Origin: Polyangiaceae bacterium
Lineage (GTDB): Bacteria > Myxococcota_A > Polyangia > Polyangiales > Polyangiaceae
Direction of reading: 5' to 3'
Length of the DNA stretch: 64,000 bases
NCBI GenBank assembly: GCA_965222375.1
Contig: CBDCTZ010000016.1
Coordinates: 32,001-96,000, forward strand
In this document: positions 42,303-64,000 of the stretch, piece after piece
Layout: every line of letters begins with the position of its first letter
How positions within the stretch are numbered: position 1 is the first letter of the stretch
Program-made: the position numbers and the translations under genes
Notes under the pieces: generated by a model
Told to the model about the DNA's origin: nothing
Database searches by the model: none
The model's input: only the letters and a program-made list of their open reading frames with translations

Positions 42303-44261
42303 TCAGAGCGACGATGTGGAGCGCTGACGGGTTGTTGGACGCTTCTTTTTGGCGAGGGCGGCGCTGATCAGGCTTTCGGCGGCGGATTGCGCGTCGCGAA
42401 CTTGCGGAGTGGAAGCGTCGGGTTGCAGCACGCGTCCGGTTTCGTCGAGGGCGTCGGGAAGAGAGCCGAGACCCTTGCTGAGCAGCCAGACCAAGAGCGC
42501 GCGAGTGAGGGGACCGGCGCCTGCGCTTTGCTCACTGCGCCACTCGCGCTTCAGTTGGCGGGCCACGGCCATTTTTGCGACGCCGCGGGCTCGGGCTCGG
42601 AGGGCGGAAGCTCCGGTGGGTAGCAAGTGTCGATCACGCTCGAGCGCGCGTTCTACTTCACGCAGTTGGGCGTGGGGCGGCTTCACGCCGTCCCGCAGTT
42701 GCTCGGCGAACAAGCAGACGCCGCGGTACACGGCTTTGAGGAAGTGGAAGGCGCGGTAACGCTCGGGGCCAGAGAACACGACGGCGGCGCGCGAGAGGCC
42801 CACCAGGTTGAGGATCTCCATGGGGATGGGGGCCGCGGGAGCCTTGGCGGCCTCGAACATGGTGGTGAGTACTTCGTCGCCGATCTGCTGCGAGTTGAAT
42901 TCCGATGTCGCATAAGAGAGGTAGTGCTCCGCATCCTGCAGCGCGTCGTTCTTGATGACGGTGGCGAAGTCGTAGAGTTGAAACGGATTGAGCGCGTAGG
43001 TGAAACACACGGGGCGCTCTTCGTGCCCTTGGTTGAGGCTGACGATCAGCTTTCGAGTGGCCGCGAGGGACTCGGCGGTTTCTCCGGGGAAGCCGTGAAT
43101 GAAAGAGAAGTAGGTGCCGATTCCGTGTCGAGCACAGGCCTCGAGGGCGGGACGGATCTGGGAAACCTTCGTGCCCTTCTTCATGGCGTTGAGCAGTCGT
43201 TGGTCCCCGGACTCCTGTCCGATGAAGAGCAGGCGAACGTTCGCCCGAGCCATCAGGTCGGCGCACTCGTCGTCGATGTCTGCGACCCGGGCGAAGGCAC
43301 TGATCGGCAGAGGGCAGCCGCCGCGGTCGGCGAGGCCGCGCAAGACCTCGAGCCAACGGGCGTGGGGCACCGAGGCGGTGGCATCGGCGAGATTGATCAT
43401 GCCGCTGTGGGCCAAGGCCGAACCCAGGATTTCCTCGACGGCGCGATCCGCGGGCATCACGCTGAGCTCGGCCAGAGTCCGAAAGGTACAGAACTCGCAC
43501 TTGAAGACGCAGCCACGCTGAGTTTCCACAGGCTGCATCAAGGTATGGCGGGCCAAGTCGATTGGGGGATCGATGCGGCTGGCCAGAGCCCAATTCGGCG
43601 TTGGAAGCTGTGCCAGCTCGAGGGCCTCTGCTCGACCCGTGTAGTCCAGGCCACCTGTCGGGCGGCGAATGTAGATCCCCGGGATGCGCCGGAGCGCGGC
43701 CGGATCCTTGTCGTGAAGGGCTCGCACGATGTCCACCAATCGCTGCTCGCCCTCGCCGATGCAGAACACATCGGCATCGAGAGACAGGAAGCCCTCGGCA
43801 TCCGTGGAGTAGTAGTAGCCACCCACCACGATTTGCGCCTTGGGCAGCGCATTGTGAACCATGCGGCACAGGGTGCGTAGCCAGGCGGTTTTCATCACGA
43901 AGGTCGTCGAGATCCCCACGACCTTGGGCGGATTGCGCCGCGCCGTTTCGAGGCGCTTTCGCCAAAAAGAAAGCCCTGTGACGCCGGGATCGCAGACCTC
44001 CCAATCGAGCTTTGCAGCCTCGAGGTGAGTCGCCATGGCGATGGCGCCGAGGGACCGATGGGCGACGGATGGCGCGCCAAAAATCGTGTCGTCTTCTTCG
44101 GCCTGGAGGGAGATGCGCATGCCCATGTGAGCTTCGAGCTTGGCGTGGGCCTCCATCAGAGGCATGTAGATGCGCGCGCCGGTGACTCGACGGACATGCT
44201 CGTCAAAGAGCATGTTCATGTCGGGCTCGAACGGCACGAGCAGCAATACGTCCGGCCCCAT
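42303..44261 (-). CDS. Cobalamin-binding radical SAM enzyme
   Basis: VVGISTTF, VVGG, GEGE (B12 domain); ETQRGCVFKCEFC; GQESGD, GFPGET. Confidence 0.9.
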   Translation of the reverse strand: MGPDVLLLVPFEPDMNMLFDEHVRRVTGARIYMPLMEAHAKLEAHMGMRISLQAEEDDTIFGAPSVAHRSLGAIAMATHLEAAKLDWEVCDPGVTGLSFWRKRLETARRNPPKVVGISTTFVMKTAWLRTLCRMVHNALPKAQIVVGGYYYSTDAEGFLSLDADVFCIGEGEQRLVDIVRALHDKDPAALRRIPGIYIRRPTGGLDYTGRAEALELAQLPTPNWALASRIDPPIDLARHTLMQPVETQRGCVFKCEFCTFRTLAELSVMPADRAVEEILGSALAHSGMINLADATASVPHARWLEVLRGLADRGGCPLPISAFARVADIDDECADLMARANVRLLFIGQESGDQRLLNAMKKGTKVSQIRPALEACARHGIGTYFSFIHGFPGETAESLAATRKLIVSLNQGHEERPVCFTYALNPFQLYDFATVIKNDALQDAEHYLSYATSEFNSQQIGDEVLTTMFEAAKAPAAPIPMEILNLVGLSRAAVVFSGPERYRAFHFLKAVYRGVCLFAEQLRDGVKPPHAQLREVERALERDRHLLPTGASALRARARGVAKMAVARQLKREWRSEQSAGAGPLTRALLVWLLSKGLGSLPDALDETGRVLQPDASTPQVRDAQSAAESLISAALAKKKRPTTRQRSTSSL

Positions 44262-44307
44262 GCTTGAAACATAGTGGCCGGACAGCGAAAGCGCGAGGTG
44301 CCAGGGA

Positions 44308-45669
44308 CTAGCTAGCCGGCTTTCTGCGCCGAATAACAGCGATGATGGGATCCCGGGGGCGAAGCGTGACCTGGCCGAGGGGCTGAACGGGATGGTCACT
44401 CACAGGCTCGAAAGACACGCGCTGCAGCAAGGTAGCAAGCACCATCTGGCCCTCCATGAGAGCGTAGCCGCTGCCCAGACAGCGCCGGGGTCCTTCGATG
44501 AACGGGATGAAGCCACCCCGGGGCAGGCCGGTTTCGAACTCCCTGGTCCAACGCCCTGGGCGGAACTCGTCGGGAGACTCGAAGAGTCGCGGGTTGCGGT
44601 GAATGCCGTAGATGTTGAGCACTACTCGCGCGCCCTTTGGCACGGCTACTCCCGACAGCGTCGTGGCTTCGGTGGCTTCACGCACTGTCATGAACACCGG
44701 TGGATACAGCCGCAAGGTTTCTTTGAAAACCCGAAGCGCGCAGGGCAGCCGCGGGCCGTCACTGGCGTTCGGAACACGTCCGGCCAGCACTTCATCGACT
44801 TCAGTTTGAAGCTCCGCGGCGAACTCTGGCTTCGCGATCAGACAGTGGATGGCCCAGGCCAGGGCATTTGGGGTCGTGTCCTGACAGGCGATGGCGAGAC
44901 CCACGGCCTCGTCCCGAGGCGAAGACCCGCTCGCTCGCAGGTCTTCGGCGCGCTGCTGAACCAGCACGGAAAGTAGATCTCGCACCGGCCGCCGCCCCGC
45001 CTCCTGGATCAACCGCGCGATCACGCGATCCAAAACGCGAACGGCTGCTCTGCCGCTCAGGCTGGCGCGGGATGGCAGCCATTTGCGAACACCCCGAGGC
45101 GCCCCGAGGCGTTCGTGGACGAGTTGATCGACGCGATCCACCGCCGAGATGACGTCGGAAGCCGGCCCCACGTCCTTGCCGAAGAGCGTGCGCGACACCA
45201 GCGCCAGGTTGAGCTGCAGCATCGCTTGCAGCACGTCGATGTGGGCGTCGTCCTGCCAACTGTGCTGTAAGCCCTCGGCCAGCTCCGCCATGGCGTCCGC
45301 GTAGCGCTCGATGGCGGGGCGACTGAAAGATGGTGCTAGAATGCGCCTACGCGTGCGGTGCTGCGGGCCGTCGGTCCAGCCCAGGTTTCGCCCCAGAAAG
45401 CCCGACGCCCAGCGATAGCCTTGGGTCTTGCGGAACAGTCCGCGGTCTTGGGCCAGCACGCTCATGGCGGCCTCGGGGGACGACACGACGAAGAGTGAGT
45501 CTCGCCCCGTCGAAACTCGGAGGACCGGCGCCGCCTCTGCAGCCTGCTGCAGGAAGTCGAAGGGGCGAGTGCGCAAGTTGCGTACATCCTGCAACGAGGC
45601 TCGACCCGCCAGCTTTCGACCCATGGCCGAGGATACCGACGTCCCTCGCGCAGGAGCAACCGGGCTCAC
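44308..45669 (-). CDS. Cytochrome P450
   Basis: ETLRLYPP, FRPGRW, PFIEGPRRCLG; I-helix ACQDTT. Confidence 0.93.
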   Translation of the reverse strand: MSPVAPARGTSVSSAMGRKLAGRASLQDVRNLRTRPFDFLQQAAEAAPVLRVSTGRDSLFVVSSPEAAMSVLAQDRGLFRKTQGYRWASGFLGRNLGWTDGPQHRTRRRILAPSFSRPAIERYADAMAELAEGLQHSWQDDAHIDVLQAMLQLNLALVSRTLFGKDVGPASDVISAVDRVDQLVHERLGAPRGVRKWLPSRASLSGRAAVRVLDRVIARLIQEAGRRPVRDLLSVLVQQRAEDLRASGSSPRDEAVGLAIACQDTTPNALAWAIHCLIAKPEFAAELQTEVDEVLAGRVPNASDGPRLPCALRVFKETLRLYPPVFMTVREATEATTLSGVAVPKGARVVLNIYGIHRNPRLFESPDEFRPGRWTREFETGLPRGGFIPFIEGPRRCLGSGYALMEGQMVLATLLQRVSFEPVSDHPVQPLGQVTLRPRDPIIAVIRRRKPAS

Positions 45670-46973
45670 GTCGTGGGATCGCCCCGAGTGACGGTCAGCC
45701 GGTGGCCTTTGGGTGGTCGCAGGGTCAGCGCTGCTCGAGGGCGCAATCCCTGGCGTGTTGCGCCGAAGCCAACCTGCCGCAGCAGCGACGCCAGTACGAG
45801 CTGGCCTTCCATCAGCGCGAAGTGGCTTCCGATACAGCGGCGAGGACCCGCAATGAATGGGATGTACGCACCGCGAGGCAGGGTTTGCTCGAAACCATCA
45901 CCCCAGCGCTGCGGTCGGAACTCCTCCGGCTCCGAGAACAGATCTGGCCGCCGCTGGATGCCATAGATGTTGAAAATGAGGTTGGACCCAGGGCTCAGTG
46001 TCACGCCGCCAACATCGAGGCTGGTTCGCGCCTGGCGCATCGTCATGTAGGCCGGCGGATACAAACGCAGCGTCTCTTTGAACACCGCGAGGGCAAGCGG
46101 AAGCTCAGCGGCGCCGGCTGCTGACAGCGCAGTGCATTGGCGCGCTTCCCGTTGCACTGCCCTCGCCGTTTCGCTCTGCTGCGCCAGCAGGTGAAGGCAC
46201 CAAGCGAGCACATAGGGCGTCGTGTCCTGACACGCGACCAGCAGCCCCACGGCTTCATCCCGCACGCTGGAGCCAGCGTCGCGGATACGCTCCCGCGATG
46301 CCCGCGAAAGGAGTTGCCCGGAGCATTGTGCGCTGGCGACGCCGGATTGACGTAAGCGCCGCAGTAGTCCTTCGATCTGCCGCACTGCAGCTCGCGCCCG
46401 CCATGCTCGCCACGATGTCCGAGCGAGGGAGCTGTCTCCCCCCAGCCGCGCCTCGAGCAAGGCATCAACTTCCTGGACCGCACTCACGATGGTGTCTACG
46501 TCCGCGTCGGAAAGCTGACCCAATAGCGACTCGGTCACGATCGAAACATTGAGGCGCAGCATGCTCTGCAGCACATCCACGCTCGCGCCGTGATGCCAGT
46601 TGCGCGCCGCTTCTTCCGAGTGTCGGAGGATTGCCGCCGCGTAGCTCTGCACGGCGCGAGGGCTGAAGCATGGGGTCAGTGCTCCTCGCTGGCGTTGATG
46701 TGCTTGTCCTTCTGCCCACAGCAGTCCGCGCCCCAGAAAGCGGGTGGCCCGGCGATAGCGAGGGGTCTTTGCGACCGTAGCGCCGTCTTGAACTAGGAGC
46801 GCGTGCACATCCTCCGGGGCGGAGAGAACATAGGCGTCCTTCCCTTGCTGCTGAATCTTGCACACGGGTGCAATGTCCGCGGCTCGAAGGAGCAGCCCAA
46901 GGGGATCGGCCCGCAAGGCGTCGCCGGATCCGATCAGCGGAGCTGAGGACATCGTCGGCCACGCTAGCTCCAC
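45666..46973 (-). CDS. Cytochrome P450 (paralog)
   Basis: ETLRLYPP, FRPQRW, PFIAGPRRCIG; I-helix ACQDTT. Confidence 0.93.
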   Translation of the reverse strand: MELAWPTMSSAPLIGSGDALRADPLGLLLRAADIAPVCKIQQQGKDAYVLSAPEDVHALLVQDGATVAKTPRYRRATRFLGRGLLWAEGQAHQRQRGALTPCFSPRAVQSYAAAILRHSEEAARNWHHGASVDVLQSMLRLNVSIVTESLLGQLSDADVDTIVSAVQEVDALLEARLGGDSSLARTSWRAWRARAAVRQIEGLLRRLRQSGVASAQCSGQLLSRASRERIRDAGSSVRDEAVGLLVACQDTTPYVLAWCLHLLAQQSETARAVQREARQCTALSAAGAAELPLALAVFKETLRLYPPAYMTMRQARTSLDVGGVTLSPGSNLIFNIYGIQRRPDLFSEPEEFRPQRWGDGFEQTLPRGAYIPFIAGPRRCIGSHFALMEGQLVLASLLRQVGFGATRQGLRPRAALTLRPPKGHRLTVTRGDPTT

Positions 46974-46997
46974 ACAAACGCGAGACCAAGAAGTGCT

Positions 46998-49900
46998 TCA
47001 GAACAAAGTGTAGATGTAGGGTCGAGGCTGCTCCCGCGGTGACATGGCTGCAGCCGCGGGAATCAGCGCGGCAACGAGTGCCGACAGCATGGGTTTGCGC
47101 CGAGCCTGCAGAAACGCGATCAAGCGGCGGTAATGCTTCGACTGCGGGCCGGGCTCGCGGTCGAAACCTTCGGGTAGGTGTGTGTACGGCTGCCAATGGC
47201 TCGTTGGGGTCCTGTTTGGATCGTTTGGCTCCAACGCACGAAAACAAGCTCCCGTCGGCACGACGAGGCCGTAATACGCCAACGCGGCCGCCCACGCCGA
47301 AACTCGGGAGCGCAACGGTGCTGCTTTGACTCCGACCAGAGTTCGAGCCCGCGCTGCCACCCCGGGCACCTGCAGCCCCAGGCGGGAGAAGAGAGCCGCC
47401 CCGGTGGTTCGAAGCAGCGCTGGCTGCATCTGCGGCTGCTGCAGGTCCCCGCGCGCAATTCGTCGAGGGAGCTTCTCGTAGTTCGCGCAGGCAGAGTCCA
47501 CGTCACCGGCGAGGGCCGCAGCTAACGCGCGAGCGCGCCGGACCTCGGGGTCATGCGGGCTGAGGGCCTCCGCTTGGCGCAGATACTCTTCCACTTGGCG
47601 CTGCGCGCCATCCGAGTCCCAGTTCTGCAGCAGCGCCAACGCGAACAGGTATTGGACACGTGAGCAAAGCACCGCGGTCTGAGTCGCGCTGTCCAGAGCG
47701 AACGCGCGGCGCACGTCCTCGATGTTCGGGCGCCGAAAAGCCGCTTGATGCGCAGCACCGTCGCTCAGCGCTTCGCGGAAACAGAGAGCGAGCTGTAGGT
47801 AGCCCTCCAGAGTGGGGTGACAATTGTCCCAGAACAGACCGGACTCATCCAACGCTTCGAGGAGCTGTGCACAGTCCGCGAGGGGCACGCTGAGCCTAGC
47901 GCAGACCTGTCGAATCGCGGTGTTCAACGCAGAGGTGCACCGGGTTGGCGCAGCGTCGTGGTCCCGGGCAGCTAGGAAGTGCGGCAGCGCTTCCCGCTTC
48001 CGTCCTTGAGCAGCCAGCTCCCGCGCGAGGAGGAAATGCGCCCAAGCCACACCGGGATCTACGCGCAAGATACGCCGAGCGGTTTGTACTGCCTCGTGGC
48101 TGTCGCCAGCTCGCGCGCGCTGCCGCGCGTGGGTCATCAGCGACGCGACTTGCCTGAGGCTCCCGCGCTTGGCCACGCGCGAACGATTCGGCGCCCATTG
48201 CGTCAGATTGCCCGCGGCAGTCGCCACCACGAGCCCTATGCCCTGGCGTTGCAGGTGCTCGATGCTCGCTTCGAGGTTGCGCGTGAGCCTGCGTACAGCG
48301 CGCTCGTGGTGCAGTGGCCCGACGCCAGAGGTCTGCGCTGGAGCGGGCCCGCGGCCGCGTATGAAGTCCAGAGGCGCACCCAGCGCGGATGGTTGATGGC
48401 GGAGGTACTCGTTGTGGCCGGTGTAGAGCAACACTAGAGACGCCGATGCGGGCACTTGGCGCGCAGCTTCGAGAACGGCGTCGGAATCCATCGCAGCGTG
48501 GGCCAGGTTCACCACCCGCACGGCGCGACCTTGCCTAGTGCCCCCCAGGCAGAACCCCACCAACTTTCCCAAGTCCAAGTCCGGGCCATAAGGTTCGCCA
48601 GCTGCAGTGGATCCGCCAAGAACGTAGATCGTGAAAAAGTCCCCGGGATCTTCGTCGGGTCCAAGCTCGGCTGGCGCTTGCTGATCAGGGCGTGCGATCA
48701 AAAAGCGGTCGAGGACGAGGTAGTCGAGACTGGTTCGGGTGAAGCAACGGTAGGCATCGCTGGGCGATTGCACGATGGGCTCGTCGCGCCCGTTGAAGCT
48801 GGTGTTGAGCAATACCGGGCAACCCGTGCGCTCTGCAAACCTGGAAAGCAAGCCGTGAAAGCGAGGATTGTGGTCCGGGCGCACGGTTTGAACCCGAGCG
48901 CTGTAGTCCACATGGGTAACGGCAGGCAGCTCGGAGCGCACGGCGTCGAGGCTGCGGGGAGACTCGCCGCTTTCTGCAGCGTGCTCTGAGCGAACCTGGG
49001 CCACGATGGCCATGTAGTCGCTGTCACCCTCGAGCTCGAAGTAGTCGGAAGCGGCTTCGCGCAGCACAGCGGGCGCAAAGGGCCGGAAAGACTCGCGGCG
49101 CTTGATTCGGTCATTCAGCCGCCGCCGCATGTCGGGTTCACGCGGGTCCGCCAGAATCGACCGCGCCCCAAGGGCACGGGGGCCAAACTCTGCGCGGTCC
49201 TGAAACCAACCCACCGCGCTCCCCGACTCGATCAGCTGTGCGGTTCGGTCTAACAGGGCATCCGTCGCTCCGAGTTCTTCGAAGGGGATCTTGCTGGCGC
49301 AGAGGTACTCCCGAACTGCTGCCTCCTCGAAGCGGGGTCCGAGCAGGGAACCCGCCTGGCCATCACTACCGTCCCGGAGCTCTCGTGTCTGACCTAGGCG
49401 CTGATGCCACAAGTAGAGCGCGGCACCCAGTGCGCCGCCGGCGTCTCCGGCCGCGGGCTGAACCCAGAGTCGATCGCAGACGGAATCACGCAACAGCCGC
49501 CCATTGGCTACGCTGTTTTGAGCCACTCCCCCTGCCAAGCAAAGATCACGAGTTCCGGCGGACTGAACTGCGTGACGTGCAACGCGCCGCACGACTTCCT
49601 CGGTCACGTACTGCAATGACGCGGCGAGATCCATGTGGGCAGGCGTCAGCGCAGCCTCGGGCGCACGACGCGGAATGCCCAAGTAGTGCTCTAGCTTGGC
49701 GCCCGCCATTCGAAGCAACGCCTGGTAGTCGAAATAGGCCATGTTCAGGCGAAAGGAGCCATCGGACTTGAGGTCGATGAGTTCCTCGTAGAAGCGCTGC
49801 GCAAGGCGAGGCGTGCCATAGGGCGCGAGGCCCATGACCTTGTACTCGTCACGGTTGACGCTGAATCCGAGCAGGTAGGTGATCGCCGAGTAGAGCAAGC

Positions 49901-50435
49901 CCAGCGAGTGGGGAAAACGAAGCTCTTGGCGTAGCGACAGGCTAGGCCCCTCGCCGTAGCCCCACGCACTGGTGGCCCACTCACCGGCCCCGTCCAAACT
50001 AACCACGGCAGCTCGAGTGAAGGGCGACGGGTAGAACGCACTGGCGGCGTGGGCCTCGTGGTGCGTGCACCACGCGATTTCCCCATCGAAGTCCAAGTCC
50101 CGCCGCAGCGAGCCGGTTATGCGCGTGCGCTCCCGGAGCCAACGGAGAACCGAACTGCGAAAAGTCTCGAATCCCCGGGGAGCGACTGTCAGCTGGGTCT
50201 GCAGGATCCGCTCGAACTTCAGCTGTGTGGATTCGTAGAAGCCCACGAGATCGACCTCGGCGGCCGAGCCCAGCTTGGCTTGGCGCAGGCAGAAGTCGAC
50301 GGCCTGGTTCGGGAAGCTCGCGTCATTCTTCTTGCGCGAGAACCGCTCCTCTTGAGCCGCCGCGATGACTCGGCCGTCCTCGAGAATGGCCGCAGCACTG
50401 TCATGATAGAGTGCGGAGATCCCGAGGATCCTCAT
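46998..50435 (-). CDS. NodU/CmcH carbamoyltransferase fused to SGNH-like/TPR and SxtJ-/SxtK(DUF5989)-like segments
   Basis: HDSAAA, QEERFSRKK, HHEAHAASAF, YKVMGLAPYG, EFGPRALGARS, LNTSFN; GGSTAAG/GHNE/DNCHP; ends PYIYTLF. Confidence 0.9.
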   Translation of the reverse strand: MRILGISALYHDSAAAILEDGRVIAAAQEERFSRKKNDASFPNQAVDFCLRQAKLGSAAEVDLVGFYESTQLKFERILQTQLTVAPRGFETFRSSVLRWLRERTRITGSLRRDLDFDGEIAWCTHHEAHAASAFYPSPFTRAAVVSLDGAGEWATSAWGYGEGPSLSLRQELRFPHSLGLLYSAITYLLGFSVNRDEYKVMGLAPYGTPRLAQRFYEELIDLKSDGSFRLNMAYFDYQALLRMAGAKLEHYLGIPRRAPEAALTPAHMDLAASLQYVTEEVVRRVARHAVQSAGTRDLCLAGGVAQNSVANGRLLRDSVCDRLWVQPAAGDAGGALGAALYLWHQRLGQTRELRDGSDGQAGSLLGPRFEEAAVREYLCASKIPFEELGATDALLDRTAQLIESGSAVGWFQDRAEFGPRALGARSILADPREPDMRRRLNDRIKRRESFRPFAPAVLREAASDYFELEGDSDYMAIVAQVRSEHAAESGESPRSLDAVRSELPAVTHVDYSARVQTVRPDHNPRFHGLLSRFAERTGCPVLLNTSFNGRDEPIVQSPSDAYRCFTRTSLDYLVLDRFLIARPDQQAPAELGPDEDPGDFFTIYVLGGSTAAGEPYGPDLDLGKLVGFCLGGTRQGRAVRVVNLAHAAMDSDAVLEAARQVPASASLVLLYTGHNEYLRHQPSALGAPLDFIRGRGPAPAQTSGVGPLHHERAVRRLTRNLEASIEHLQRQGIGLVVATAAGNLTQWAPNRSRVAKRGSLRQVASLMTHARQRARAGDSHEAVQTARRILRVDPGVAWAHFLLARELAAQGRKREALPHFLAARDHDAAPTRCTSALNTAIRQVCARLSVPLADCAQLLEALDESGLFWDNCHPTLEGYLQLALCFREALSDGAAHQAAFRRPNIEDVRRAFALDSATQTAVLCSRVQYLFALALLQNWDSDGAQRQVEEYLRQAEALSPHDPEVRRARALAAALAGDVDSACANYEKLPRRIARGDLQQPQMQPALLRTTGAALFSRLGLQVPGVAARARTLVGVKAAPLRSRVSAWAAALAYYGLVVPTGACFRALEPNDPNRTPTSHWQPYTHLPEGFDREPGPQSKHYRRLIAFLQARRKPMLSALVAALIPAAAAMSPREQPRPYIYTLF

Positions 50436-50479
50436 GGGATCTCACTAGCAGTGGATATCGTCTGCACCAAGCGAGGGTG

Positions 50480-51927
50480 ATGACAGCGCCTGACGCGGGT
50501 GAGGAAAACCCGGACCGCGAGCCAGCCAAACGATTGCGCCGCGCCGTAGTCGGAGGGACAGCCTATCTTGGGGCCGGCGCGAGCGCGCGTCTGCTGCAGC
50601 TCCTGGTTCTGCCGTTGGTGATGCGAGCTGTCTCCCCCGAGGTGTTCGGCAAGTACGTGCTGATTCGGGTCGCTCTGTTTCTCTTTCGCAGCCTGACGGA
50701 TCTGGGAACGAGCTCAGCGACGGTGCGCTACGCGGGGCGCGGAGCCACGGACTAGGGCCTGACCAACGCCAGCGTTTGGTGGGGGCGGGTGACGCTGGCT
50801 GGGACTGGGTCGGTGGCGCTCGTGACCCTCACCTACGCAGTTTCGCCAGCCCACACACCCGTCGCCGTGCTGGCAGCAGGAGCCTTCTTCAGCCTGAGCG
50901 TTGGCGACGCTTTGGCTGCCATCGCCCGAGCACAGGAGCGACACCGGCTGGTTGCGACGGCACATGTCGTAGGCGCGGTCATGGAGGCCACGAGCCTACT
51001 CGTTTTCGTGTGGTTGCTCGAACACGCCCTGGTTGGTCTGGCGGCATCCCTGTGCTTGCGTTTTGTGCGGCGTTCGGGGTGATTGCTCCGCGGGTGTTGG
51101 GCGCGGCGCTGGGTCGACCCAGTCTGTCCCGCTACGTCGCGTTGCTGCGCTTTGGCGTGCCAGCCGCGATTGCGGCACTGATGGGGACCCTGGGCGCAAT
51201 GGACCGCTGGTTGATCGAGCGGGTCTCGTCCCTGGCCAACGTAGCCGCGTACCACTTCGCGAGCATTCCGGGAGTGGTGATCGAAGTGGTGCAGCACGCC
51301 GTCTTCCACGCCGCCGAACCCTGGGTCTACGGCTCGAACGTGGCGTCGCGTGCCCGGGCATTGCAACGCCTGACACAGCTCTACTTCAGCGCGGCGACTG
51401 CGGCAGCACTCGTCGCGAGCCTTTCGGCGCCGGAAGTGTTGTTCGTTCTGGCGCCCCCGGAATATGGCGCCGCCCCCAGCGTCATCCCCTGGTTGACCTT
51501 CGCAGCCGTCTTGCGTGGTGGCGTTCGGATCGTCGGCATCGCAGCGGGCATTGCCCACCAAACGCGGCCGTGGGCGATCGCTGGCTTGATCGACTTGGCC
51601 TTGCTCGCGATCCTGATTGCCGGCGGCGTGCCGCATTTTGGTGTGCTTGCGGCGGGGATCGCTCGATTCGTCGCGGCGGCCGCGGGACTGGTCGCCTGCC
51701 ACCGCTTGTCGGAACTCGCATCGAAGTCGCGAATCCGGGCCGGGTGGGCCATTGGATGGGCAATCCTGTGCGCAGCGCTCTGCGTCGCGTGTATCGACGG
51801 TCCTCTGGGACCAGGGCAGCCCCTGACGATACGGGGAGCGGTGTTGTTCGCCTTGGGCCTGCTCACGCTCGTGTTGCACAAGCACGTCAGTTCCTCCCGT
51901 CTTCGAGGGCCGGCTGCATTAGGCTGA
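50480..51927 (+). pseudogene. Wzx/MOP-family flippase with in-frame TAG (50753) and frameshift near 51060
   Basis: LPLVMRAVSPEVFGKY..DLG; LLRFGVP..MDRWLIE..VAAY in a second frame. Confidence 0.75.
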
Positions 51928-51993
51928 CACCATGACGCGCACGCGGCGGCGGCTGATCCAAGTACGGCACGGCAAGTCCCAAGCAGGCGCTCG

Positions 51994-56848: not shown

Positions 56849-59667
56849 GACCCAACACTGAAGTTCTGAAGCAACAAACGCGCGTCTTTCGAACCCGCGA
56901 TCACCCGCGTTTCCAAGCTGAGCGCAAGGTGCCGCCGGAACCAGTCGTGGAGCGAGAAGATCAGATCTGGTGGGTCTTGGCTGGCCGACAGCGTCTCACG
57001 ATAAAGTCGGTGCCTTCGGCCATCCACCTCGACCCACACCGCAAGCTCCAACCGAGTGCTCTCACCGCCCTCCAATTTCGGTTGGGCGCGAACGCAGGTG
57101 TCAGCGCTGACGTAGAAGGGGTAGCTGAGCGCCGCGTTCGGCGACATGGCGACATAGGACGGTCCTTCGGGGCGTGCCCAACCCTTTGGGACTCGAACCA
57201 ACCGGCGCCGCAACTTCTCAGCGACCACGGCGCGGTTGCTGCAACGATTCAGACGGGGTTTGCCAACGAACAGAAAGTCGTTTGCCGGGCTGTCTCGGGT
57301 CTCGGAGCCGAGGCGGAGCAAGACGTCCCGGTCCTTCCAGCGGTCCAAGGGCAATTCGATCTTGTGTGCCTGCTCGCCGGGCAAGACCACCTGGCGGAAG
57401 ATGACCGGACGCTGATCCGCATCGTGCACATGCACCTCTGCCAACGCACCGTCGCCTGAACCTTTGGGCATTTCGATACCCAGTTCCATGTACAGACAGG
57501 TGGAGCCGCAGGGGCGAACCGGAAAATACACTTCAGCGGGCTGCTCGGGCTTGGGCGTGGGGTGCAACAAGAAGCGCTGCTCCGTGGGTCGAACGGCAAC
57601 CCCACGCGGCATCGCGGCGCCCGACTGCACCGACTCCAACAAGTCGGCTTTCGGCGTGCAGTGCGCCTTGCGCGGCGTGACAACCTTGGTCCGTGGGGAC
57701 CAAGCCTCAGCCGCGTGAACCACGAACTCGATCTCGCTCGGTGACAATCTCCCCCGAGGCGCGAAACGCAGCCGCACTGAATCCGCTCGCGCGGGCTCCT
57801 TGCGTGCACGCGCGACTATCCAGCGCCACTCGGCGTCGACAGGGTCGACGGCCAGAGTCGCTTTTGTCCGTGTGTTGATCGCAACATCCGTCCAAGGCAC
57901 TTCAGCACTCACCGCTTTTCCGTCGCGTTCGAAGCGGTAGAAGATCTCCGGCGACGCCCCCAACATGCGCGTCAGCTCTTGGATTTCGAAACTGTGGTCC
58001 AACCACAGGAAGTCGGGCCCGGTGAGCTCTCGGCCCAGCGACAGAACCAGTTCACCAGGGACCGAAACCGTCGTCGTGCGGCCCACCTCGGCAAGGGGTA
58101 GCGACTGCCGCTTGGGAGGAAGGGGCACTTGCCTGAGGCGCATCGCGAAAGTCGCCGGCCCTAGGCGCCGCTCGACTTCGTACAGTTCGCTGATCACGAA
58201 CAGGTCTTCTCCCAAGAACCAATTCGGCTGGTCAGGGCGATCGAAGCTGCCGATCTGATACACGAAGGTGGGGCAACGCTCCTCACGAATCCGCTGGCCG
58301 AGCCGGCGCTGCTGCTCGCTGTTCCAGCGCAACGCGATGCTCGTGGGGCCCGGCAGGTCCGCTAGTGCGTGAGCCACTGAGAGCCCCGGTGACAGACTCA
58401 CGCAAGCTCCGTCGAGGGTTCGCTTCTTGTCTCGCAAGAAGGCGGTGGTCGTCGAAATGTCGGTCGCGAAGTCCAGTTGGGGCTTTCGCTCACCGCGCCG
58501 TACTTTCGACGCCTCGGCAAAGACCTTGGGACTGAGCCAGAGGTTTTCGGAGCGCGCGCCGTACCAGCCGAGTAGGAAGATGGCGGCGAGGAGCGCCGTC
58601 GCCGAGCGGGTCTTCGTCGTGCCTGCGCTGGGCCGGGCGGCGATCACGATCAGCACGCCTACCAATGGCAGCACTCCCATGAACACATGCCCGGCGTTGG
58701 GCTGTGGAATGGCGAAGACCGCGAGGGGCAACGCTCCGGCGATCCAGCACGCCTCCAACGCGCGCCGCTCTCGGGATGCGACCCCGAACAAGGCAACCAT
58801 GCAGGCGCACACCACGAGCAGGATCACATTCGCCGCATTGTCCTCTGCGGTCTTCGCGAGAGTGACTGCGTAGGACGCCGCCATGGCGCGCTGCTCCGCA
58901 ACATACTCAGTCGGACTCACACCGAGCCCAAGACCGATGGCGCACACGCCGGCGAGCCAGCCAGCCTGCGCGACGAGGTACAGCGCAAATCGCCTCAACC
59001 CAGGTCGCAACGGAAGTCCGTGGCGCCACCGAAGGAGCAGCTCGACACACGCCATCAAGCCGACGGTTCCCCCCGCCAACACCAAGCGGTCGAGGGAGAG
59101 CAGCGCTGCCACGGTGGCGACACCCGCCGCGAGGACGGCATCGCGTGCCGTGGGTCGCCGCTCGCTCGACTCACTGGGCAAGTAGAGCAGCACGTGGGCG
59201 AGCGAAAGCATCGGCCTCAGGGTCGCGACGCCGGCGCCATAGCAGAGCAGCCCAAGCAAGCCATATACAAGCAGGCGAGCGAGGGGATGCTTGGTGCTGC
59301 GCCATGCAATGACGAAGGAGAGGATCACGCCGAGGGCTTGCACCACGGCTTGCATGCCAGCGGCCGCGTGCGCTGCATCGAACGCGCCGGGCAAGGCGCC
59401 AAAGTAGGCGAGCGCTTGCCACAAGGGGCCCATGGGGAAGTGGAAGTCGCGACCGACCCATTGCCCGTGGCTAGCGTGCCAAGGCAGCGACAGCTGCCAA
59501 GAGTAGTCCACGGGGTTCGAAAGCAAGGTCCGCGAGTCCCACAGGCGAAAACGCACATAGGCACCAGCGGCGATGGCTGCGGTAGCATACAGGGAGAACA
59601 AAGCCACCGGTAGGTGACGAAGAAAGCGCCGCGCCCGCCCCAGATTCTGGCTCGGCTGCTCCGTCAC
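56833..59667 (-). CDS. Large polytopic membrane protein (paralog 1; start uncertain, up to 59730)
   Basis: VDYSWQLSLPWHASHGQWVGRDFHFPMGPLWQALA, same architecture. Confidence 0.8.
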   Translation of the reverse strand: MTEQPSQNLGRARRFLRHLPVALFSLYATAAIAAGAYVRFRLWDSRTLLSNPVDYSWQLSLPWHASHGQWVGRDFHFPMGPLWQALAYFGALPGAFDAAHAAAGMQAVVQALGVILSFVIAWRSTKHPLARLLVYGLLGLLCYGAGVATLRPMLSLAHVLLYLPSESSERRPTARDAVLAAGVATVAALLSLDRLVLAGGTVGLMACVELLLRWRHGLPLRPGLRRFALYLVAQAGWLAGVCAIGLGLGVSPTEYVAEQRAMAASYAVTLAKTAEDNAANVILLVVCACMVALFGVASRERRALEACWIAGALPLAVFAIPQPNAGHVFMGVLPLVGVLIVIAARPSAGTTKTRSATALLAAIFLLGWYGARSENLWLSPKVFAEASKVRRGERKPQLDFATDISTTTAFLRDKKRTLDGACVSLSPGLSVAHALADLPGPTSIALRWNSEQQRRLGQRIREERCPTFVYQIGSFDRPDQPNWFLGEDLFVISELYEVERRLGPATFAMRLRQVPLPPKRQSLPLAEVGRTTTVSVPGELVLSLGRELTGPDFLWLDHSFEIQELTRMLGASPEIFYRFERDGKAVSAEVPWTDVAINTRTKATLAVDPVDAEWRWIVARARKEPARADSVRLRFAPRGRLSPSEIEFVVHAAEAWSPRTKVVTPRKAHCTPKADLLESVQSGAAMPRGVAVRPTEQRFLLHPTPKPEQPAEVYFPVRPCGSTCLYMELGIEMPKGSGDGALAEVHVHDADQRPVIFRQVVLPGEQAHKIELPLDRWKDRDVLLRLGSETRDSPANDFLFVGKPRLNRCSNRAVVAEKLRRRLVRVPKGWARPEGPSYVAMSPNAALSYPFYVSADTCVRAQPKLEGGESTRLELAVWVEVDGRRHRLYRETLSASQDPPDLIFSLHDWFRRHLALSLETRVIAGSKDARLLLQNFSVGSCPQN

Positions 59668-59748
59668 ACTTGTGTCCTGCTCTTTCACGACGTTAGAACG
59701 GCTCGGGTGGCTTCCGGCACCAAACGGCATGCAGCAATCCGGCGTGCC

Positions 59749-60378
59749 ATGGCGCTACGGCTCGAGGATAAGCCGGAGCTCGGCGCGTACCACGTCGACT
59801 TTGCATCGATGGTGCGGCGGATGCGGGCAATCGAGGCCATTTGCGAGAAGAGCGACAGGATCCTCTTCCTCGGGGATGACGATCTCGCATCGCTAGCCGT
59901 GCATTTCTTGGGCTATCACAACCTAACGGTTCTGGATCTCGACCAGCAGCTCCTCGCAGTCGTCAAGAAGCACTCCCGAGGCCGGATCCGCACCGTCCCC
60001 CACGATCTACGCGGGGTCTATCGGGGGCGCCTTCCCCGCCTGGGCGTGAAGTTCGACTTGTTCGTCACCGACCCGCCCTACGGCGCCGACGGGCTTCGGG
60101 CGTTCAGCGGCGTCGGTCTGGCCAATCTCGCGCTGGGCGGGATGGGTCTGGTGGCGACTCCGGAACGCAAGGCACCCGTGACCAACGTCGGCGATCCGGA
60201 AACTCTGACCCACTCGCTGCAGGAGTTCCTCATCGCCAGTGGTGGGCTGCTACTCCGCGCAGACTCGGCCGCCATCCGCTCCTATCATGGCACGGTCGCG
60301 ACGATGCTTTGGTTGAAGAAGCACACGCGACGCAAGCCCCGATTCGATCTCCTAGAGGGCCCCGGTGCCTTCTACTGA
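59749..60378 (+). CDS. BpsA/DUF43-like aminopropyl- or methyltransferase domain protein
   Basis: ILFLGDDDLASLA, VLDLD, HDLR, FDLFVTDPPY. Confidence 0.75.
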   Translation: MALRLEDKPELGAYHVDFASMVRRMRAIEAICEKSDRILFLGDDDLASLAVHFLGYHNLTVLDLDQQLLAVVKKHSRGRIRTVPHDLRGVYRGRLPRLGVKFDLFVTDPPYGADGLRAFSGVGLANLALGGMGLVATPERKAPVTNVGDPETLTHSLQEFLIASGGLLLRADSAAIRSYHGTVATMLWLKKHTRRKPRFDLLEGPGAFY

Positions 60379-61777
60379 CGAAGGCGCTGCTGACCTTCGC
60401 GGCCCCGATCCTCACGCAGAGCGCCGCTTGGAATTGCTTGTGGCCTACGCGCGGGGCGCCTTCAAACTTCTTCCTGAGCTTATCGGAATTCCCTGGCTCC
60501 CCGTGCCCGCACTTCGTGCGTTGGTGCGTCGACGGCGCAGGGCACTGGTGACGCGGGCCTTCAGAGACGTTCCTTTCTATCGAGATGCCTTTGGCTCGGC
60601 TGGCTTCGCCGAGACCGATGTTGGCCGAGCCGAAAACTTCACCCAGCTCCCTCTCCTCACGAAGGAGCATCTACTGACAGCCGGCAGCTCCCTGTTCAGC
60701 TCCGGGGCGGCACCCCGTGATCAATTGCTGGCCCGGCGCTCCAGCGGGTCCACGGGCGCACCGACGGTCGGCTATTTCGACCCTTTGCGTGAGGCTCAAC
60801 GCCGAGCTCAAGAGCTGCGCATGCTCTCTAGCCATGGGGTGCGACCGCGACACGTTCAGCTGATATTGGACGCCCCGGCACATCTGCCACCGAAGCCTTT
60901 CATCCTGCAGCGCATGGGCCTGTGGCGCCGCATACCTTATCCAGTGGAGCTCTCGCCCGCCGCGGCCCTCGACGAGATCGAGCGCATGCAACCTGAAGTC
61001 ATTCACGGCGTCTTGGCAGGGCTGCGTATGCTGGCGCTCGCAGCCGAGGCCCGCGGCGGCCTCGAGCACCGACCGCATCGCATCTTCTCTCGGGGCGAAG
61101 TCTTGGATGCACAAACGCGCTGGTTCATCGAAAACGCCCTTGGCGCCCCTCTGGTCGACTTCTACGCAACCGAGGAAACGGGGATCGTGGCCTGGGAGTG
61201 TCCCCTGGGCGGCGGATACCACGTGGACTCGGACTTGGTTTTCGTCGAGGTGTTGCGGGAAGACGGCTCCACGGCGGCGCCCGGGGAGCTTGGTGAACTC
61301 GTGCTGACGAACTTGTTTCAACACACCATGCCAATCATCCGCTACCGCGTAGGCGATATGGGTGCGCTGAGCGCAACACGGTGCCCATGCGGGCGTGGCC
61401 TACCTCTGCTCACGGAGCTTCAAGGGCGACGCTTGGACTTCATCGTCACGCCCGGTGGCAAGCTGCACGACCCCTTTCGAGTCATGGCCATATTCGAGCA
61501 CGTCTCTGGCGTTCGCTGGTTTCGCGTTCAGCAACGGTCCGTCGAACTGCTTGTCGTACAGCTCGGTTTCGAAGCCGAACTGACCCCGGAAGAGCGCGAG
61601 CATGTTCGGAAGCAGCTGCGCCTGGGGTTTGAGCGCCTGTTTCGAGAACCCATCAAGCTCGACTTCGAGGACGCCGGCGAGTTCCAGGTCCCCATGGGTA
61701 CCAAGGCGCCGTTGGTGAAAGGCCTCGGCCTCAGCCTGGAGCAGCTCGCGGAAAAGGGCTACCGCTTCCGAATCTAG
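60365..61777 (+). CDS. Phenylacetate-CoA-ligase-like (CapK/PaaK) adenylate-forming enzyme
   Basis: VPFYR, LPLLTKE, SSGSTGAP, YATEE, MPIIRYRVGD, CPCGRGLP. Confidence 0.9.
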   Translation: MPSTDEGAADLRGPDPHAERRLELLVAYARGAFKLLPELIGIPWLPVPALRALVRRRRRALVTRAFRDVPFYRDAFGSAGFAETDVGRAENFTQLPLLTKEHLLTAGSSLFSSGAAPRDQLLARRSSGSTGAPTVGYFDPLREAQRRAQELRMLSSHGVRPRHVQLILDAPAHLPPKPFILQRMGLWRRIPYPVELSPAAALDEIERMQPEVIHGVLAGLRMLALAAEARGGLEHRPHRIFSRGEVLDAQTRWFIENALGAPLVDFYATEETGIVAWECPLGGGYHVDSDLVFVEVLREDGSTAAPGELGELVLTNLFQHTMPIIRYRVGDMGALSATRCPCGRGLPLLTELQGRRLDFIVTPGGKLHDPFRVMAIFEHVSGVRWFRVQQRSVELLVVQLGFEAELTPEEREHVRKQLRLGFERLFREPIKLDFEDAGEFQVPMGTKAPLVKGLGLSLEQLAEKGYRFRI

Positions 61778-61786: not shown

Positions 61787-62509
61787 TCAGCGGCGGTAGG
61801 CGACCACGATGAGAAAGCTACCGAGACTGGGCACCAACTTCGCCAACCAGCGAGACGCCCAGCGCACTTGTTCGGGTTCCCTGGGGTCGCGGCGAAAGAC
61901 CACCAGCGTGCTCGACAGCTCTTGGACGTCGAGGCCAGCCTCGGCAAGGGCCCGCTTCAACGTGCCGGGGGCGAAGGGGCGAATGTGGAGCTTCAAGTAC
62001 GGATGCAACGGTTGCACCTGCATTGGCGCGCGCCCGAGCAATAGCCGGAAGCGGTCCGGTAGGTGGGCCAGGTTCGGCGTGGTCAGCACCAGCTTGCCGC
62101 CGGGCTTCAACACGCGCCGCACCTCCGCCAAGAACGCACGAGTGTCGAATAAGTGCTCGATGATCTCGCCAGCGAAAACGACATCGAAATTACCAGCCTG
62201 TACCGGGATTTCTGAACTCACATCCCCCTTGAGGGGCGTGATGCCCCGCTCTGCGGCCTCAGCCAGTGCTTGCTCCGAAACGTCCATACCGGTGACTCGA
62301 TAGCCGAGTCGCGACAGTCGCTCACCCACTCGGCCATCTCCACAACCCAGATCGAGTAGGCGCGGCTGCCCCATTGGGTCCGCGAGGAGCTTTTCGACAA
62401 CCTGCAACCGCAGCACGTTGTCGGCATCACGCGCGAGGAAGTCGAAAGCGTTTCGTCTTCCGAACCACTCGGCGTTGTCGCCGGCGGTGTCTGGGCGCTG
62501 GGAGGTCAT
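61787..62509 (-). CDS. Class I SAM-dependent methyltransferase
   Basis: LLDLGCGDG, FDVVFAGEIIEHL, RVLKPGG..TTPN. Confidence 0.92.
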   Translation of the reverse strand: MTSQRPDTAGDNAEWFGRRNAFDFLARDADNVLRLQVVEKLLADPMGQPRLLDLGCGDGRVGERLSRLGYRVTGMDVSEQALAEAAERGITPLKGDVSSEIPVQAGNFDVVFAGEIIEHLFDTRAFLAEVRRVLKPGGKLVLTTPNLAHLPDRFRLLLGRAPMQVQPLHPYLKLHIRPFAPGTLKRALAEAGLDVQELSSTLVVFRRDPREPEQVRWASRWLAKLVPSLGSFLIVVAYRR

Positions 62510-62519
62510 GACCAGTGCG

Positions 62520-63581
62520 TCAGAAGTAGAAGTCGTCTTTCGTATTCGCCAAGATCTTGCACTGGGAAGCACACTCATACACATGGTCCCTGGCGCGGCC
62601 CGCAGCAGCGCCAGTCCACATTTTGTGCAAATCCTGGCGCAGAATGTGGCCGAAGCTCTCCCACGTGTTCGGGCACATCTTGACCTGACCCTGTTCGGTT
62701 ACGAGTAGCGTCTTCAATTCGCTCTCGCAGCTCTCCAGCTTTCCAAAGGCAACCGGATCGCGGAAGTAGGCGCGCCACTGACGAAAATCGTTGTCGCTGT
62801 TCTGGATCGGATAGCCAGCCGCTTTGCGGCCCTCCAGCTCCGCCACGAACTCCATGGCTGCGTCGGGAACTGGGAACAGCGGGCTCTTCTCGAACCAACG
62901 GTCACCCTGGGGGCGTTCGCCCATGAAGAAGTCCGTGCTGGCGACGGGCTGGAAGCTGTGGCCCTCGATACCTTCATTCTTCACCCAATCCGACAGCTGC
63001 AGCAACCCGTCGAGGTTGTCTCGCATGATGATGCTGTTGACCCATACGCGCGGGTGCTCCAGCCCGAGCCGCTCCCGCGCCTCCCGGATGTGCTCGATGG
63101 CCTTCTTGGCAAGAACCCATGCGCCTTTCTTGCCGCGACTCGCATCGTGATAGGCCGCGTCCGCACTGTCGATGGACACGGCCATGAACGACAGCCCGGA
63201 GCGCACGACCCGTTCTGCCCGCTGTCGAGTGGCGATCAGCGTTCCGTTGGTGGTGACGCTCGTGGTCACGTCCAAGTCGCGCGCGGTCGCCACGACGTCC
63301 AGCAGGTCACGATGCAAGAACGGCTCACCGGCGATAAAGGAGAGGCTGAACGGCGCGCCGACAAAGCTGCGCAGCCGCCGCAGCGCTTCGCGTTTCTCGC
63401 TGAGTGAAAGCGAGGGCTCTAAGCGGTAGCTCTTGGTGCGTCGACCGATATCGCAGTGGTTGCAGGACAGGTTGCAGATCTGCTCCCACCACCAAAAGAT
63501 GCGCTCGGGCTTGGGGTGCACAGTGGTCGCAGGCGACGATCCGCCGCGGCGCAACAAGCGGTCCACAAGCACCAAAGACAT
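62520..63581 (-). CDS. Radical SAM protein with SPASM/Twitch-like C-terminus
   Basis: CNLSCNHC, GEPF, TTNG; C..GQVKMC..FGHI..CASQC. Confidence 0.9.
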   Translation of the reverse strand: MSLVLVDRLLRRGGSSPATTVHPKPERIFWWWEQICNLSCNHCDIGRRTKSYRLEPSLSLSEKREALRRLRSFVGAPFSLSFIAGEPFLHRDLLDVVATARDLDVTTSVTTNGTLIATRQRAERVVRSGLSFMAVSIDSADAAYHDASRGKKGAWVLAKKAIEHIREARERLGLEHPRVWVNSIIMRDNLDGLLQLSDWVKNEGIEGHSFQPVASTDFFMGERPQGDRWFEKSPLFPVPDAAMEFVAELEGRKAAGYPIQNSDNDFRQWRAYFRDPVAFGKLESCESELKTLLVTEQGQVKMCPNTWESFGHILRQDLHKMWTGAAAGRARDHVYECASQCKILANTKDDFYF

Positions 63582-63649
63582 GGAAAAACGGTACGAGGGG
63601 GTGGGGGCTCGGTCAAGCGCCGAGCCGCTTTGCGAATACCCGCAGTGAG

Positions 63650-64000
63650 CTAGAGGCGGATGCCGCGTTGTGCGAGGAAGTCGAGATAACCCGACATGCT
63701 GACGGCAATTCGCTCCTCGGAGAGCCCAAACTGACGCAAGGAGTAACGATGGGCTCCGCGGCTGTGATGCGTCGCGCGCGACAATTGTCTAGCGATACCG
63801 CGCCGCCCGGTGTCATCGAGTTCGTACCCGAAGCGATCGTAGATGCCTTCGACGACACGTATGGGGCTGTCGACCAGGTCGGAATACGCGACGTCCCAGC
63901 AGCGCTGATCTGAAATGCATCGTCGACGCGCGAGCCCACTCGCGACGAGCTCGGTCAGGGACTGCAGCACCGCACTGCCGAGCGGCGCAGGGTCGACACC
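63650..64000 (-). CDS. Sulfotransferase-family protein, C-terminal part (start beyond window)
   Basis: DVAYSDLVDSPIRVVEGIYDRFG..HRYSLRQFGL. Confidence 0.75.
   Translation of the reverse strand, partial: GVDPAPLGSAVLQSLTELVASGLARRRCISDQRCWDVAYSDLVDSPIRVVEGIYDRFGYELDDTGRRGIARQLSRATHHSRGAHRYSLRQFGLSEERIAVSMSGYLDFLAQRGIRL

Follow-up and report, generated by a model that had tools for sequence, protein, structure and literature searches.

What is made by a locus that sets a carbamoyltransferase, two cytochromes P450, a sulfotransferase and several radical S-adenosylmethionine (SAM) enzymes around two large membrane proteins, with no gene for a molecular scaffold among them? The question is raised by the interval 42303..64000 of a 64,000-nucleotide stretch of a Polyangiaceae genome (contig C16:32001-96000), which we refer to as the window and whose coordinates are used throughout unless a contig or locus is named. 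The genome (G000; 10.56 Mb, 64% GC, 16 contigs) has uncultured Polyangiaceae metagenome-assembled genomes as its closest named relatives, and we found no description of this gene set in the literature. A preliminary description of the window had noted a flippase among the genes and proposed one cluster for a heavily modified lipid-linked or glycoconjugate product, exported and transferred at the membrane. We checked the interval one open reading frame (ORF) at a time, surveyed 201 genomes of the order, and compared the locus with 11 other loci that carry the same family of membrane protein. The interval is a composite of a conserved core (54.0-66.8 kb) and a strain-specific arm (40.6-54.6 kb), and our best explanation, to which we give an even chance, is that the locus serves to glycosylate an envelope glycan in the periplasm, using a lipid-linked donor tailored by cytoplasmic enzymes, with the arm as a strain-specific accessory. 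The glycoconjugate part of the earlier proposal stands because the large membrane proteins are, as modelled, GT-C-fold glycosyltransferases with periplasmic domains resembling carbohydrate-binding modules (CBMs); the single cluster and the export by flippase do not.

The tandem membrane proteins

The two membrane proteins, of 965 and 937 amino acids (aa), are present as described, have approximately 10-11 hydrophobic segments each, and align end to end with 27% identity. An AlphaFold2 (AF2) model of the 937-aa protein, built on an alignment of 16 sequences, has a mean predicted local distance difference test score (pLDDT) of 87.3, and the top matches to its residues 6-499 are GT-C enzymes only. 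The best match to this membrane domain is ArnT (5f15; Z 16.6, 390 residues aligned, root-mean-square deviation (rmsd) 5.6), followed by Pmt4 (Z 15.8), AglB (15.4), AftA (14.8), PimE (14.2), and STT3 and PglB (13-14), whilst Foldseek also places AftD and EmbC among the matches to the model. Residues 653-926 match single and tandem CBM51 modules (2vmg, Z 13.5, rmsd 2.0; 2ygl, Z 12.2). On this model, both proteins are predicted to be GT-C-fold glycosyltransferases with CBM51-like periplasmic domains; enzymes of the GT-C type take sugars from lipid-linked donors and transfer them on the outer side of the membrane. An acidic residue (Asp or Glu) lies approximately 12 residues after the first transmembrane (TM) helix, in the first periplasmic loop, in 16/16 rows of one alignment (A1) and 13/13 rows of another (A2), and corresponds to D49 in the 937-aa protein and D75 in the 965-aa protein (motif VDYSWQL). 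In PMC11127046, the Asp proposed to be catalytic in GT-C enzymes has this same location after TM1, and by analogy D49 and D75 may be catalytic.

The pair are members of a rare family without a Pfam model. The 937-aa protein has no Pfam match even at E ≤ 5, the 965-aa protein has only DUF2142 at E 1.2, neither has an NCBIfam match, and none of 20 homologues has a Pfam match at E ≤ 0.01. A word-indexed search of 5.8 billion clusters returned 14 proteins of the family, all annotated ‘hypothetical’, and a profile search of 1.84 billion representative proteins returned 287 at E ≤ 1e-3, 142 at 1e-10 and 84 at 1e-30. The family is present in at least 11 of the 201 genomes, these counts being lower bounds since no more than four candidates were scored per genome, and it is almost always found as a tandem pair, an arrangement that recurs in other loci. 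Tight linkage to a PaaK-type ligase and to a truncated BpsA-type enzyme (see below) also marks the family, which with these fixed partners is what is new and testable here. Two more tandem pairs lie in the same genome outside the window (C14:1000671-1006351 and C16:2152537-2158142); the flanking genes of the C14 pair encode two PaaK-like ligases, a PhyH dioxygenase, a radical SAM enzyme, a sugar nucleotidyltransferase, an epimerase and a GT2.

Among enzymes of known structure, the mycobacterial EmbA, EmbB, EmbC, AftA and AftD (7bvf, 7bve, 8if8, 6w98) are likewise large GT-C proteins with periplasmic carbohydrate-binding modules, have paralogues encoded side by side and match the 937-aa model; they differ in sequence (9-13% identity), in organism and in envelope, and no genes of a decaprenyl-phospho-arabinose pathway lie near the pair. 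ArnT, which adds 4-amino-4-deoxy-L-arabinose (L-Ara4N) to lipid A, is the closest to the membrane domain but is without CBM-like domains, and its own locus encodes ArnA-D/E/F for building and flipping the donor, none of which was detected at the locus described here.

Conserved core and variable arm

Only the right half of the locus (54.0-66.8 kb; genes in Table 1) is conserved with synteny. Its order, GT-C 965 and GT-C 937, then the BpsA-like gene and ligase, then the methyltransferase and radical SAM (rSAM) genes, was found in two genomes of the same genus (G182 and G150) and one of the same family (G138). The sulfotransferase is present in G150 and in G022, a genome of another family, and missing from G182, which has the second of two B12-binding radical SAM genes (B12-rSAM B); the core recurs with or without these two genes in related Polyangiaceae and a second family. 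The preliminary description had treated the genes as one cluster and named a lack of co-conservation among the findings that would speak against it, and this is what we see for the left arm, though not for the core. Nucleotide homology to G182 covers 35554-40640 and 54576-70235, and the 13.9 kb between them (40640-54576), which hold a helix-turn-helix (HTH)/DUF2442 gene and the entire left arm, are replaced in G182 by an unrelated 4.7 kb. The best match to the arm's carbamoyltransferase in G182 is just 1e-60, there is no match at 1e-20 in G150, and no orthologue was found in these two same-genus genomes; its N-terminal domain alone is common (127/201 genomes, including one unpublished, G123). 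The replacement in G182 encodes a 776-aa GH123-like glycoside hydrolase (L015:1561-3891), together with three small ORFs that match no family. At the arm's left boundary, the DUF2442 and HTH_3/HTH_31 protein (41116-41970) has no integrase, tRNA or flanking repeat alongside.

Elsewhere the genes of the core keep close company. The BpsA-like gene occurs in 7/201 genomes and the radical SAM orthologue in 5/201, all within the 11/201 that have the GT-C family, and the methyltransferase orthologues adjoin the radical SAM gene in G182, G150, G138 and G022. A ligase homologue lies no more than 3 kb from the GT-C gene(s) in 9 of the 12 loci, those without one being G036-C76, the pair at 2.15 Mb of G000-C16, and G094-C56, which is cut by a contig end; G000 has three GT-C pairs and five ligase homologues, three of which adjoin pairs. 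In G088 the ligase and BpsA-like genes are divergent from a single GT-C gene, whilst in G022 the sulfotransferase, BpsA-like, fragmented ligase, methyltransferase and rSAM genes stand together with no adjacent GT-C gene. Paralogous GT-C loci carry GT4, GT2, GH13, GH57, sugar nucleotidyltransferase, epimerase, class-III aminotransferase, PhyH dioxygenase, Wzx and MatE genes, and the gene company overall is glycan-related.

Are the two halves then merely neighbours? In such a reading the core would be a glycan or other envelope system and the arm an independently acquired operon that tailors another substrate, for instance a lipid, terpenoid or other small molecule made elsewhere in the genome. 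The swap in G182 and the distant or missing carbamoyltransferase matches in both same-genus genomes are what it would predict, the arm has its own transcription units, divergent from the flippase remnant, and the nearest NCBIfam likenesses of the P450s are terpene oxygenases, although far below cut-off. However, the signs of an island are lacking: there is no tRNA in the window, no integrase, no direct or inverted repeat at the boundaries beyond matches of chance size and no shift in GC, and no scaffold gene was found in the ORFs scanned from 8.5 to 81.4 kb. The B12-rSAM of the arm (A) and that of the core (B) are paralogues with 40% identity, from one rare subfamily present in 9/201 genomes at E ≤ 1e-90, and gene types of the arm adjoin those of the core in other genomes. 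In G196 this B12-rSAM adjoins a PaaK-like ligase, a 1151-aa carbamoyltransferase and an SxtJ-like gene; in G150 the orthologue of B adjoins a GMC oxidoreductase with a small ORF that starts RRRF; in G185 this B12-rSAM stands among epimerases, cupins, a FemAB-type acyltransferase and a Wzx-like gene; and in G036 a Wzx gene adjoins a GT-C gene. A GT-C gene of this family was not found by profile search (A1) of six-frame ORFs at the B12-rSAM loci of G196, G185, G169, G150-C8 and G102. The arm is tied to the core not through synteny but through this recurring company elsewhere, and with both sides counted we consider it rather unlikely that the halves are unrelated.

Enzymes of the core and of the arm

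The enzymes of the preliminary description were all found by Pfam in their places (a B12-rSAM, two P450s, a carbamoyltransferase, a GMC oxidoreductase, a BpsA-like protein, an adenylating enzyme, a methyltransferase, a radical SAM enzyme and a sulfotransferase), and their catalytic signatures are unbroken: CX3CX2C in all three radical SAM proteins, the haem Cys in both P450s (consensus FxxGxRxCxG), SSGSTG in the ligase and PRTGST in the sulfotransferase.

Table 1. Genes of the arm and the core, in window coordinates.
Feature	Position	Strand	Remarks
B12-binding radical SAM enzyme A (B12-rSAM A)	42303..44399	-	698-aa ORF; Pfam B12-binding and Radical_SAM; CX3CX2C at residue 297
Cytochrome P450 A	44308..45669	-	PF00067, 211 bits; haem motif FIEGPRRCLG
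Cytochrome P450 B, paralogue of A	45666..46973	-	PF00067, 168 bits; haem motif FIAGPRRCIG
NodU/CmcH-type carbamoyltransferase fused to SGNH/GDSL-like and tetratricopeptide repeat (TPR) domain	46998..50435	-	1145-aa ORF; Pfam
Wzx/MOP-type flippase pseudogene	50480..51927	+	TAG at 50753; frameshift near 51050-51080
GMC-family flavin adenine dinucleotide (FAD) oxidoreductase	51994..53568	+	GMC_oxred_N and GMC_oxred_C
Doubtful 157-aa ORF	53565..54038	+	RRRVLFF N-terminus; one hydrophobic segment; 4-nt overlap with GMC stop
GT-C-fold membrane glycosyltransferase (predicted), 937 aa	54035..56848	-	AF2 model; periplasmic tandem beta-sandwich CBM51-like domains
Paralogous GT-C-fold membrane glycosyltransferase (predicted), 965-aa ORF	56833..59730	-	First gene of pair
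BpsA catalytic-domain homologue, 209 aa	59749..60378 (gene call)	+	PF01861; ORF 59614-60378
PaaK/F390-synthetase-type adenylate-forming ligase	60365..61777	+	Overlaps BpsA-like gene by 14 nt
Class I SAM methyltransferase	61787..62584	-	Methyltransf_11, 78.7 bits
Radical SAM enzyme with short twitch-like C-terminal Cys domain	62520..63581	-	Radical_SAM, 62 bits
Sulfotransferase, 422 aa	63650..64000 in window, to 64918	-	Sulfotransfer_3, 127 bits (full ORF)
B12-rSAM B, 619 aa	64896-66755 (past window)		B12-radical SAM gene

The BpsA-like protein matches PF01861 (BpsA_C) with 58.7 bits against a cut-off of 27, its GDDD motif is invariant in 11/11 sequences and DPPY is also invariant. Its AF2 model (pLDDT 87.9) is closest in fold to the branched-chain polyamine synthase BpsA (5xnc; Z 19.7, 194/209 residues, 26% identity), with a methyltransferase next at Z 16.7, and aligns only to residues 113-343 of 5xnc: it is without the N-terminal domain and the C-terminal acidic aminopropyl-carrier cluster, and ends LLEGPGAFY. 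According to PMC12979288 both of these are features of BpsA, and the GDDD motif positions the aminopropyl group of decarboxylated SAM (dcSAM). Because the domain and the cluster are absent, we treat the protein as a likely aminopropyl or N-alkyl transferase, as sequence and model suggest, and not as BpsA proper. It shares the catalytic-domain fold and GDDD with BpsA but is just 209 aa long, has a PaaK-type ligase as its coupled partner and GT-C genes as linked neighbours, and comes from a mesophilic soil-type host, not a thermophile.

The ligase is translationally coupled to the BpsA-like gene. Its NCBIfam matches (DVU_1553, PaaK and FlxY-type) are all below cut-off, and a sequence search of the PDB finds PaaK (4r1l, 4.5e-19). 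The best NCBIfam likenesses of the ligase and the methyltransferase, DVU_1553 and DVU_1556, both below cut-off, belong to one Desulfovibrio cassette, which may reflect a distant shared module.

An alternative that these genes raise is a soluble product, in which the BpsA-type enzyme, ligase, methyltransferase, radical SAM enzyme and sulfotransferase make a modified polyamine or acyl-amine, the GT-C pair being merely a frequent neighbour. The kept GDDD motif, given its role in BpsA (PMC12979288), and the nearness of the fold to BpsA are in its favour, as are the five cytoplasmic genes of G022 that stand without an adjacent GT-C gene; yet all seven genomes with a BpsA-like gene also have the GT-C family, compared with 11/201 overall, the BpsA-like and ligase genes are divergent and directly against GT-C genes in G000, G182, G150, G138 and G088, and the protein lacks the two BpsA features named above. 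We regard a soluble product as very unlikely.

The radical SAM enzyme has its CX3CX2C at residue 36 and had been labelled SPASM-type, a label which does not hold (SPASM 21.3 bits against a cut-off of 21.5, no seven-Cys motif). Since it has four C-terminal Cys only (285, 303, 337 and 341) and no CX2CX5CX3C, it is better called twitch-like; the N_Twi_rSAM model (NF033640, cut-off 170 bits) reaches 47 bits at best in the genome, and the enzyme of the cluster is not among the 17 matches listed. Among solved structures, the sugar decarboxylase BlsE is the closest relative of the cluster's enzyme (2.5e-11).

The same enzymes could also belong to a pathway for a ribosomally synthesised and post-translationally modified peptide (RiPP), with B12-rSAM C-methyltransferases, a SPASM-type maturase, P450s and a methyltransferase modifying a peptide from an unnoticed small gene. 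The B12-rSAMs have sub-threshold likeness to ApyD (3e-18 and 4e-21), the P450s to ApyO (6e-45 and 2e-43), and rSAM_ocin_1 (NCBIfam) is also matched, but such matches are far under their cut-offs (65-154 bits against 282-750). There is hardly any space between the genes, the only gaps holding the broken flippase and a conserved acidic protein of approximately 340 aa; no protease, ABC exporter or RiPP recognition element (RRE)-type domain was found among the genes; and the radical SAM enzyme has four rather than seven C-terminal Cys, with a best solved relative that acts on a sugar. We give this pathway hardly any credence.

In the arm, the carbamoyltransferase has both Carbam_trans_N (260 bits) and Carbam_trans_C (235 bits) above Pfam cut-off, whereas the NodU equivalog of NCBIfam reaches 131 bits against a cut-off of 1000. 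The carbamoyltransferase part spans residues 1-581 and the SGNH/GDSL-like and TPR part residues ~590-1145; these C-terminal ~550 residues resemble stand-alone GDSL/SGNH and TPR proteins (Atlas score 0.96) and keep the GGS and DNCH motifs. No other fusion of this kind was found among 5.8 billion proteins in a shared-word search, which does not prove absence. The carbamoyltransferase relative in G196, adjoining the SxtJ-like gene, has a 550-aa N-terminal extension instead. P450 B shares with P450 A a stretch of 72 nt with 72% identity, and B12-rSAM A, the final gene of the left-arm operon, probably has its true start approximately 45 codons downstream of that of the ORF. The 157-aa ORF after the GMC gene has weak coding statistics (GC at third codon positions of 0.66, against 0.77 for an antisense ORF) and no Pfam match, and weakly resembles (E 0.019) the small ORF that precedes a GMC gene in G150; with its twin-arginine-like start, we take it to be possibly a small partner of the GMC enzyme with a twin-arginine translocation (Tat) signal, as in membrane-bound sugar dehydrogenases.

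The flippase is not the working gene it had been taken for. Its N-terminal fragment matches Polysacc_synt (PF01943, 30.5 bits against a cut-off of 28.2), and a three-frame translation found an in-frame TAG at 50753 and a change of frame near 51050-51080. Both lesions are identical in independently assembled contigs from the runs of two coded samples of one study, probably the material that the genome came from, which confirms the pseudogene and makes export by the flippase, as encoded, impossible. A low-depth variant contig reads CAG and not TAG at 50753. It represents a second strain from the same sample, approximately 8% divergent over 50654-51662, seen in the contigs of one coded run, and because that strain reads CAG the stop is strain-specific; around the frameshift no indel was reported to distinguish the two.

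Proposed function and the edges of the locus

By analogy, the locus would work most like the three-component periplasmic systems (GT136, Gtr and Arn) and the Emb/Aft enzymes. In PMC11127046, the GT136 prototype, from Citrobacter youngae O antigens, is a GT-C enzyme with a C-terminal CBM that decorates a glycan in the periplasm. Such systems, the prototype and the Gtr- and Arn-type systems compared with it, are marked by a GT-C enzyme with approximately 11 TM helices, a small periplasmic domain after TM1 that bears the proposed catalytic Asp and a beta-rich C-terminal CBM, by a finished glycan as the target of decoration and by a flippase gene of the MOP/MATE superfamily in the locus, all of which have counterparts in the genes or the proposed scheme here. 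The locus differs from these systems in having two tandem paralogous GT-C genes without Pfam or NCBIfam likeness, no polyprenyl-phosphate sugar synthase and a dead flippase, and in its partners, which are radical SAM, B12-rSAM, BpsA- and PaaK-type enzymes, sulfo- and carbamoyltransferases and P450s in place of an epimerase. Two of the three features of the scheme, the synthase and an intact flippase, are lacking, whilst the third, a C-terminal CBM-like module, is seen in the model.

In the glycosylation reading, the core would comprise two tandem GT-C enzymes in the inner membrane, with approximately 11 TM helices each, supplied from the cytoplasm. A sugar, or a sugar with an amine or acyl substituent, would be edited there, probably on a polyprenyl-phosphate carrier, by the BpsA-type enzyme, the PaaK-type ligase, the methyltransferase, the twitch-type radical SAM enzyme, the sulfotransferase, of the type using 3'-phosphoadenosine 5'-phosphosulfate (PAPS), and the B12-radical SAM enzyme; it would then be flipped to the periplasmic face, where the GT-C pair would move it onto an envelope or secreted glycan held by their own CBM-like domains. 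Apart from the GT-C pair, and perhaps from the GMC enzyme, the tailoring enzymes are without hydrophobic segments, and enzymes of these families draw on the SAM, ATP, PAPS, carbamoyl phosphate and reducing power of the cytoplasm. The arm (the carbamoyltransferase-SGNH/TPR fusion, two P450s, a B12-rSAM, the GMC enzyme and the dead Wzx) would be a species-variable accessory set acting on the same product, and we liken it to the variable parts of surface-glycan loci, which also differ between species. Comparable chemistry on sugars is known from Nod factors (NodU, NodH, NodS) and aminoglycosides (TobZ, BtrN, GenK and NeoQ-type GMC enzymes) and includes O-carbamoylation, sulfation, methylation, oxidation or C-methylation by radical SAM enzymes and oxidation by FAD enzymes; there is no demonstrated orthology to these systems, and no genes for a chitin-oligomer or aminocyclitol scaffold are present in the locus.

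Several observations weigh against this reading. No polyprenyl-phosphate sugar-loading enzyme (GT2, UbiA or PPPRS type) was found in the ORFs scanned from 41.1 to 66.8 kb and the sole flippase gene is a pseudogene, so that donor synthesis and export would need genes elsewhere. The locus has no ordinary Leloir glycosyltransferase or nucleotide-sugar gene, and the conservation of the core does not extend to its arm. P450s and B12-rSAMs belong more typically to the chemistry of small molecules, lipids or peptides, and their best NCBIfam likenesses include terpene oxygenases and the RiPP enzymes ApyO and ApyD, all far below cut-off. The cytoplasmic module of G022 without an adjacent GT-C gene, and G196, where no GT-C match was found, indicate that the modules can work apart. 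Finally, a common fold, here that of a model, tells no substrate.

A bolder form of the periplasmic glycosylation reading, which we think clearly improbable in its entirety, is that the locus encodes an undescribed envelope decoration, in which a heteromeric, Pfam-less GT-C pair would transfer a natural-product-like sugar built on a lipid carrier by radical SAM, B12, P450 and BpsA-type enzymes. Such a sugar would be aminopropylated or amide-linked, C-methylated and sulfated, and in this strain also carbamoylated and hydroxylated, with a swappable arm that would vary the surface chemistry from strain to strain and might serve, for example, in kin recognition or in evading phages. In myxobacteria, gliding, the formation of fruiting bodies and recognition between cells all depend on surface glycans, whose chemistry outside Myxococcus is largely unknown. 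If the glycosylation reading is true, the decoration of glycans in the periplasm would be linked with radical-SAM, B12 and polyamine-type chemistry, and glycobiologists would have a new donor-acceptor system; if the halves are unrelated, the interval would be an ordinary variable region beside an uncharacterised envelope locus.

The cluster was expected to continue past the window and does so, but for just 2.75 kb, to ~66755: the remainder of the sulfotransferase is followed by B12-rSAM B and then by housekeeping genes (cytochrome c, seryl-tRNA synthetase (SerRS), a Ser/Thr kinase, RNase R and others). The genes upstream are unrelated (MoxR, a transglutaminase, kinases, a sigma factor and transporters). 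The scan of ORFs (8.5-37.7 kb, the cluster, and downstream to 81.4 kb) agrees with the preliminary description in showing no polyketide synthase, non-ribosomal peptide synthetase, terpene cyclase or space for a precursor gene, and the extension brought to light no known scaffold downstream, which that description had allowed might explain the set.

Three candidate ORFs were set aside. A 601-aa ORF with a short DNA-methylase-like stretch (38851-40656) overlaps a Na+/H+ antiporter gene and was not counted; because homology to G182 runs as far as 40640, this ORF lies in the conserved flank and not in the variable arm. A 212-aa ORF (41985-42623) overlaps a better-supported gene and was likewise left out of the cluster, and a 196-aa plus-strand ORF (67243-67833) was rejected as spurious, its space being filled by a conserved minus-strand ORF. 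This last, of approximately 340 aa (~66805-67830; L001:4805-5830), lies between B12-rSAM B and the cytochrome c gene and has a long, acidic, repeat-rich middle (AE/VAE-type repeats), and its homologue of 355 aa stands in the same place in G182.

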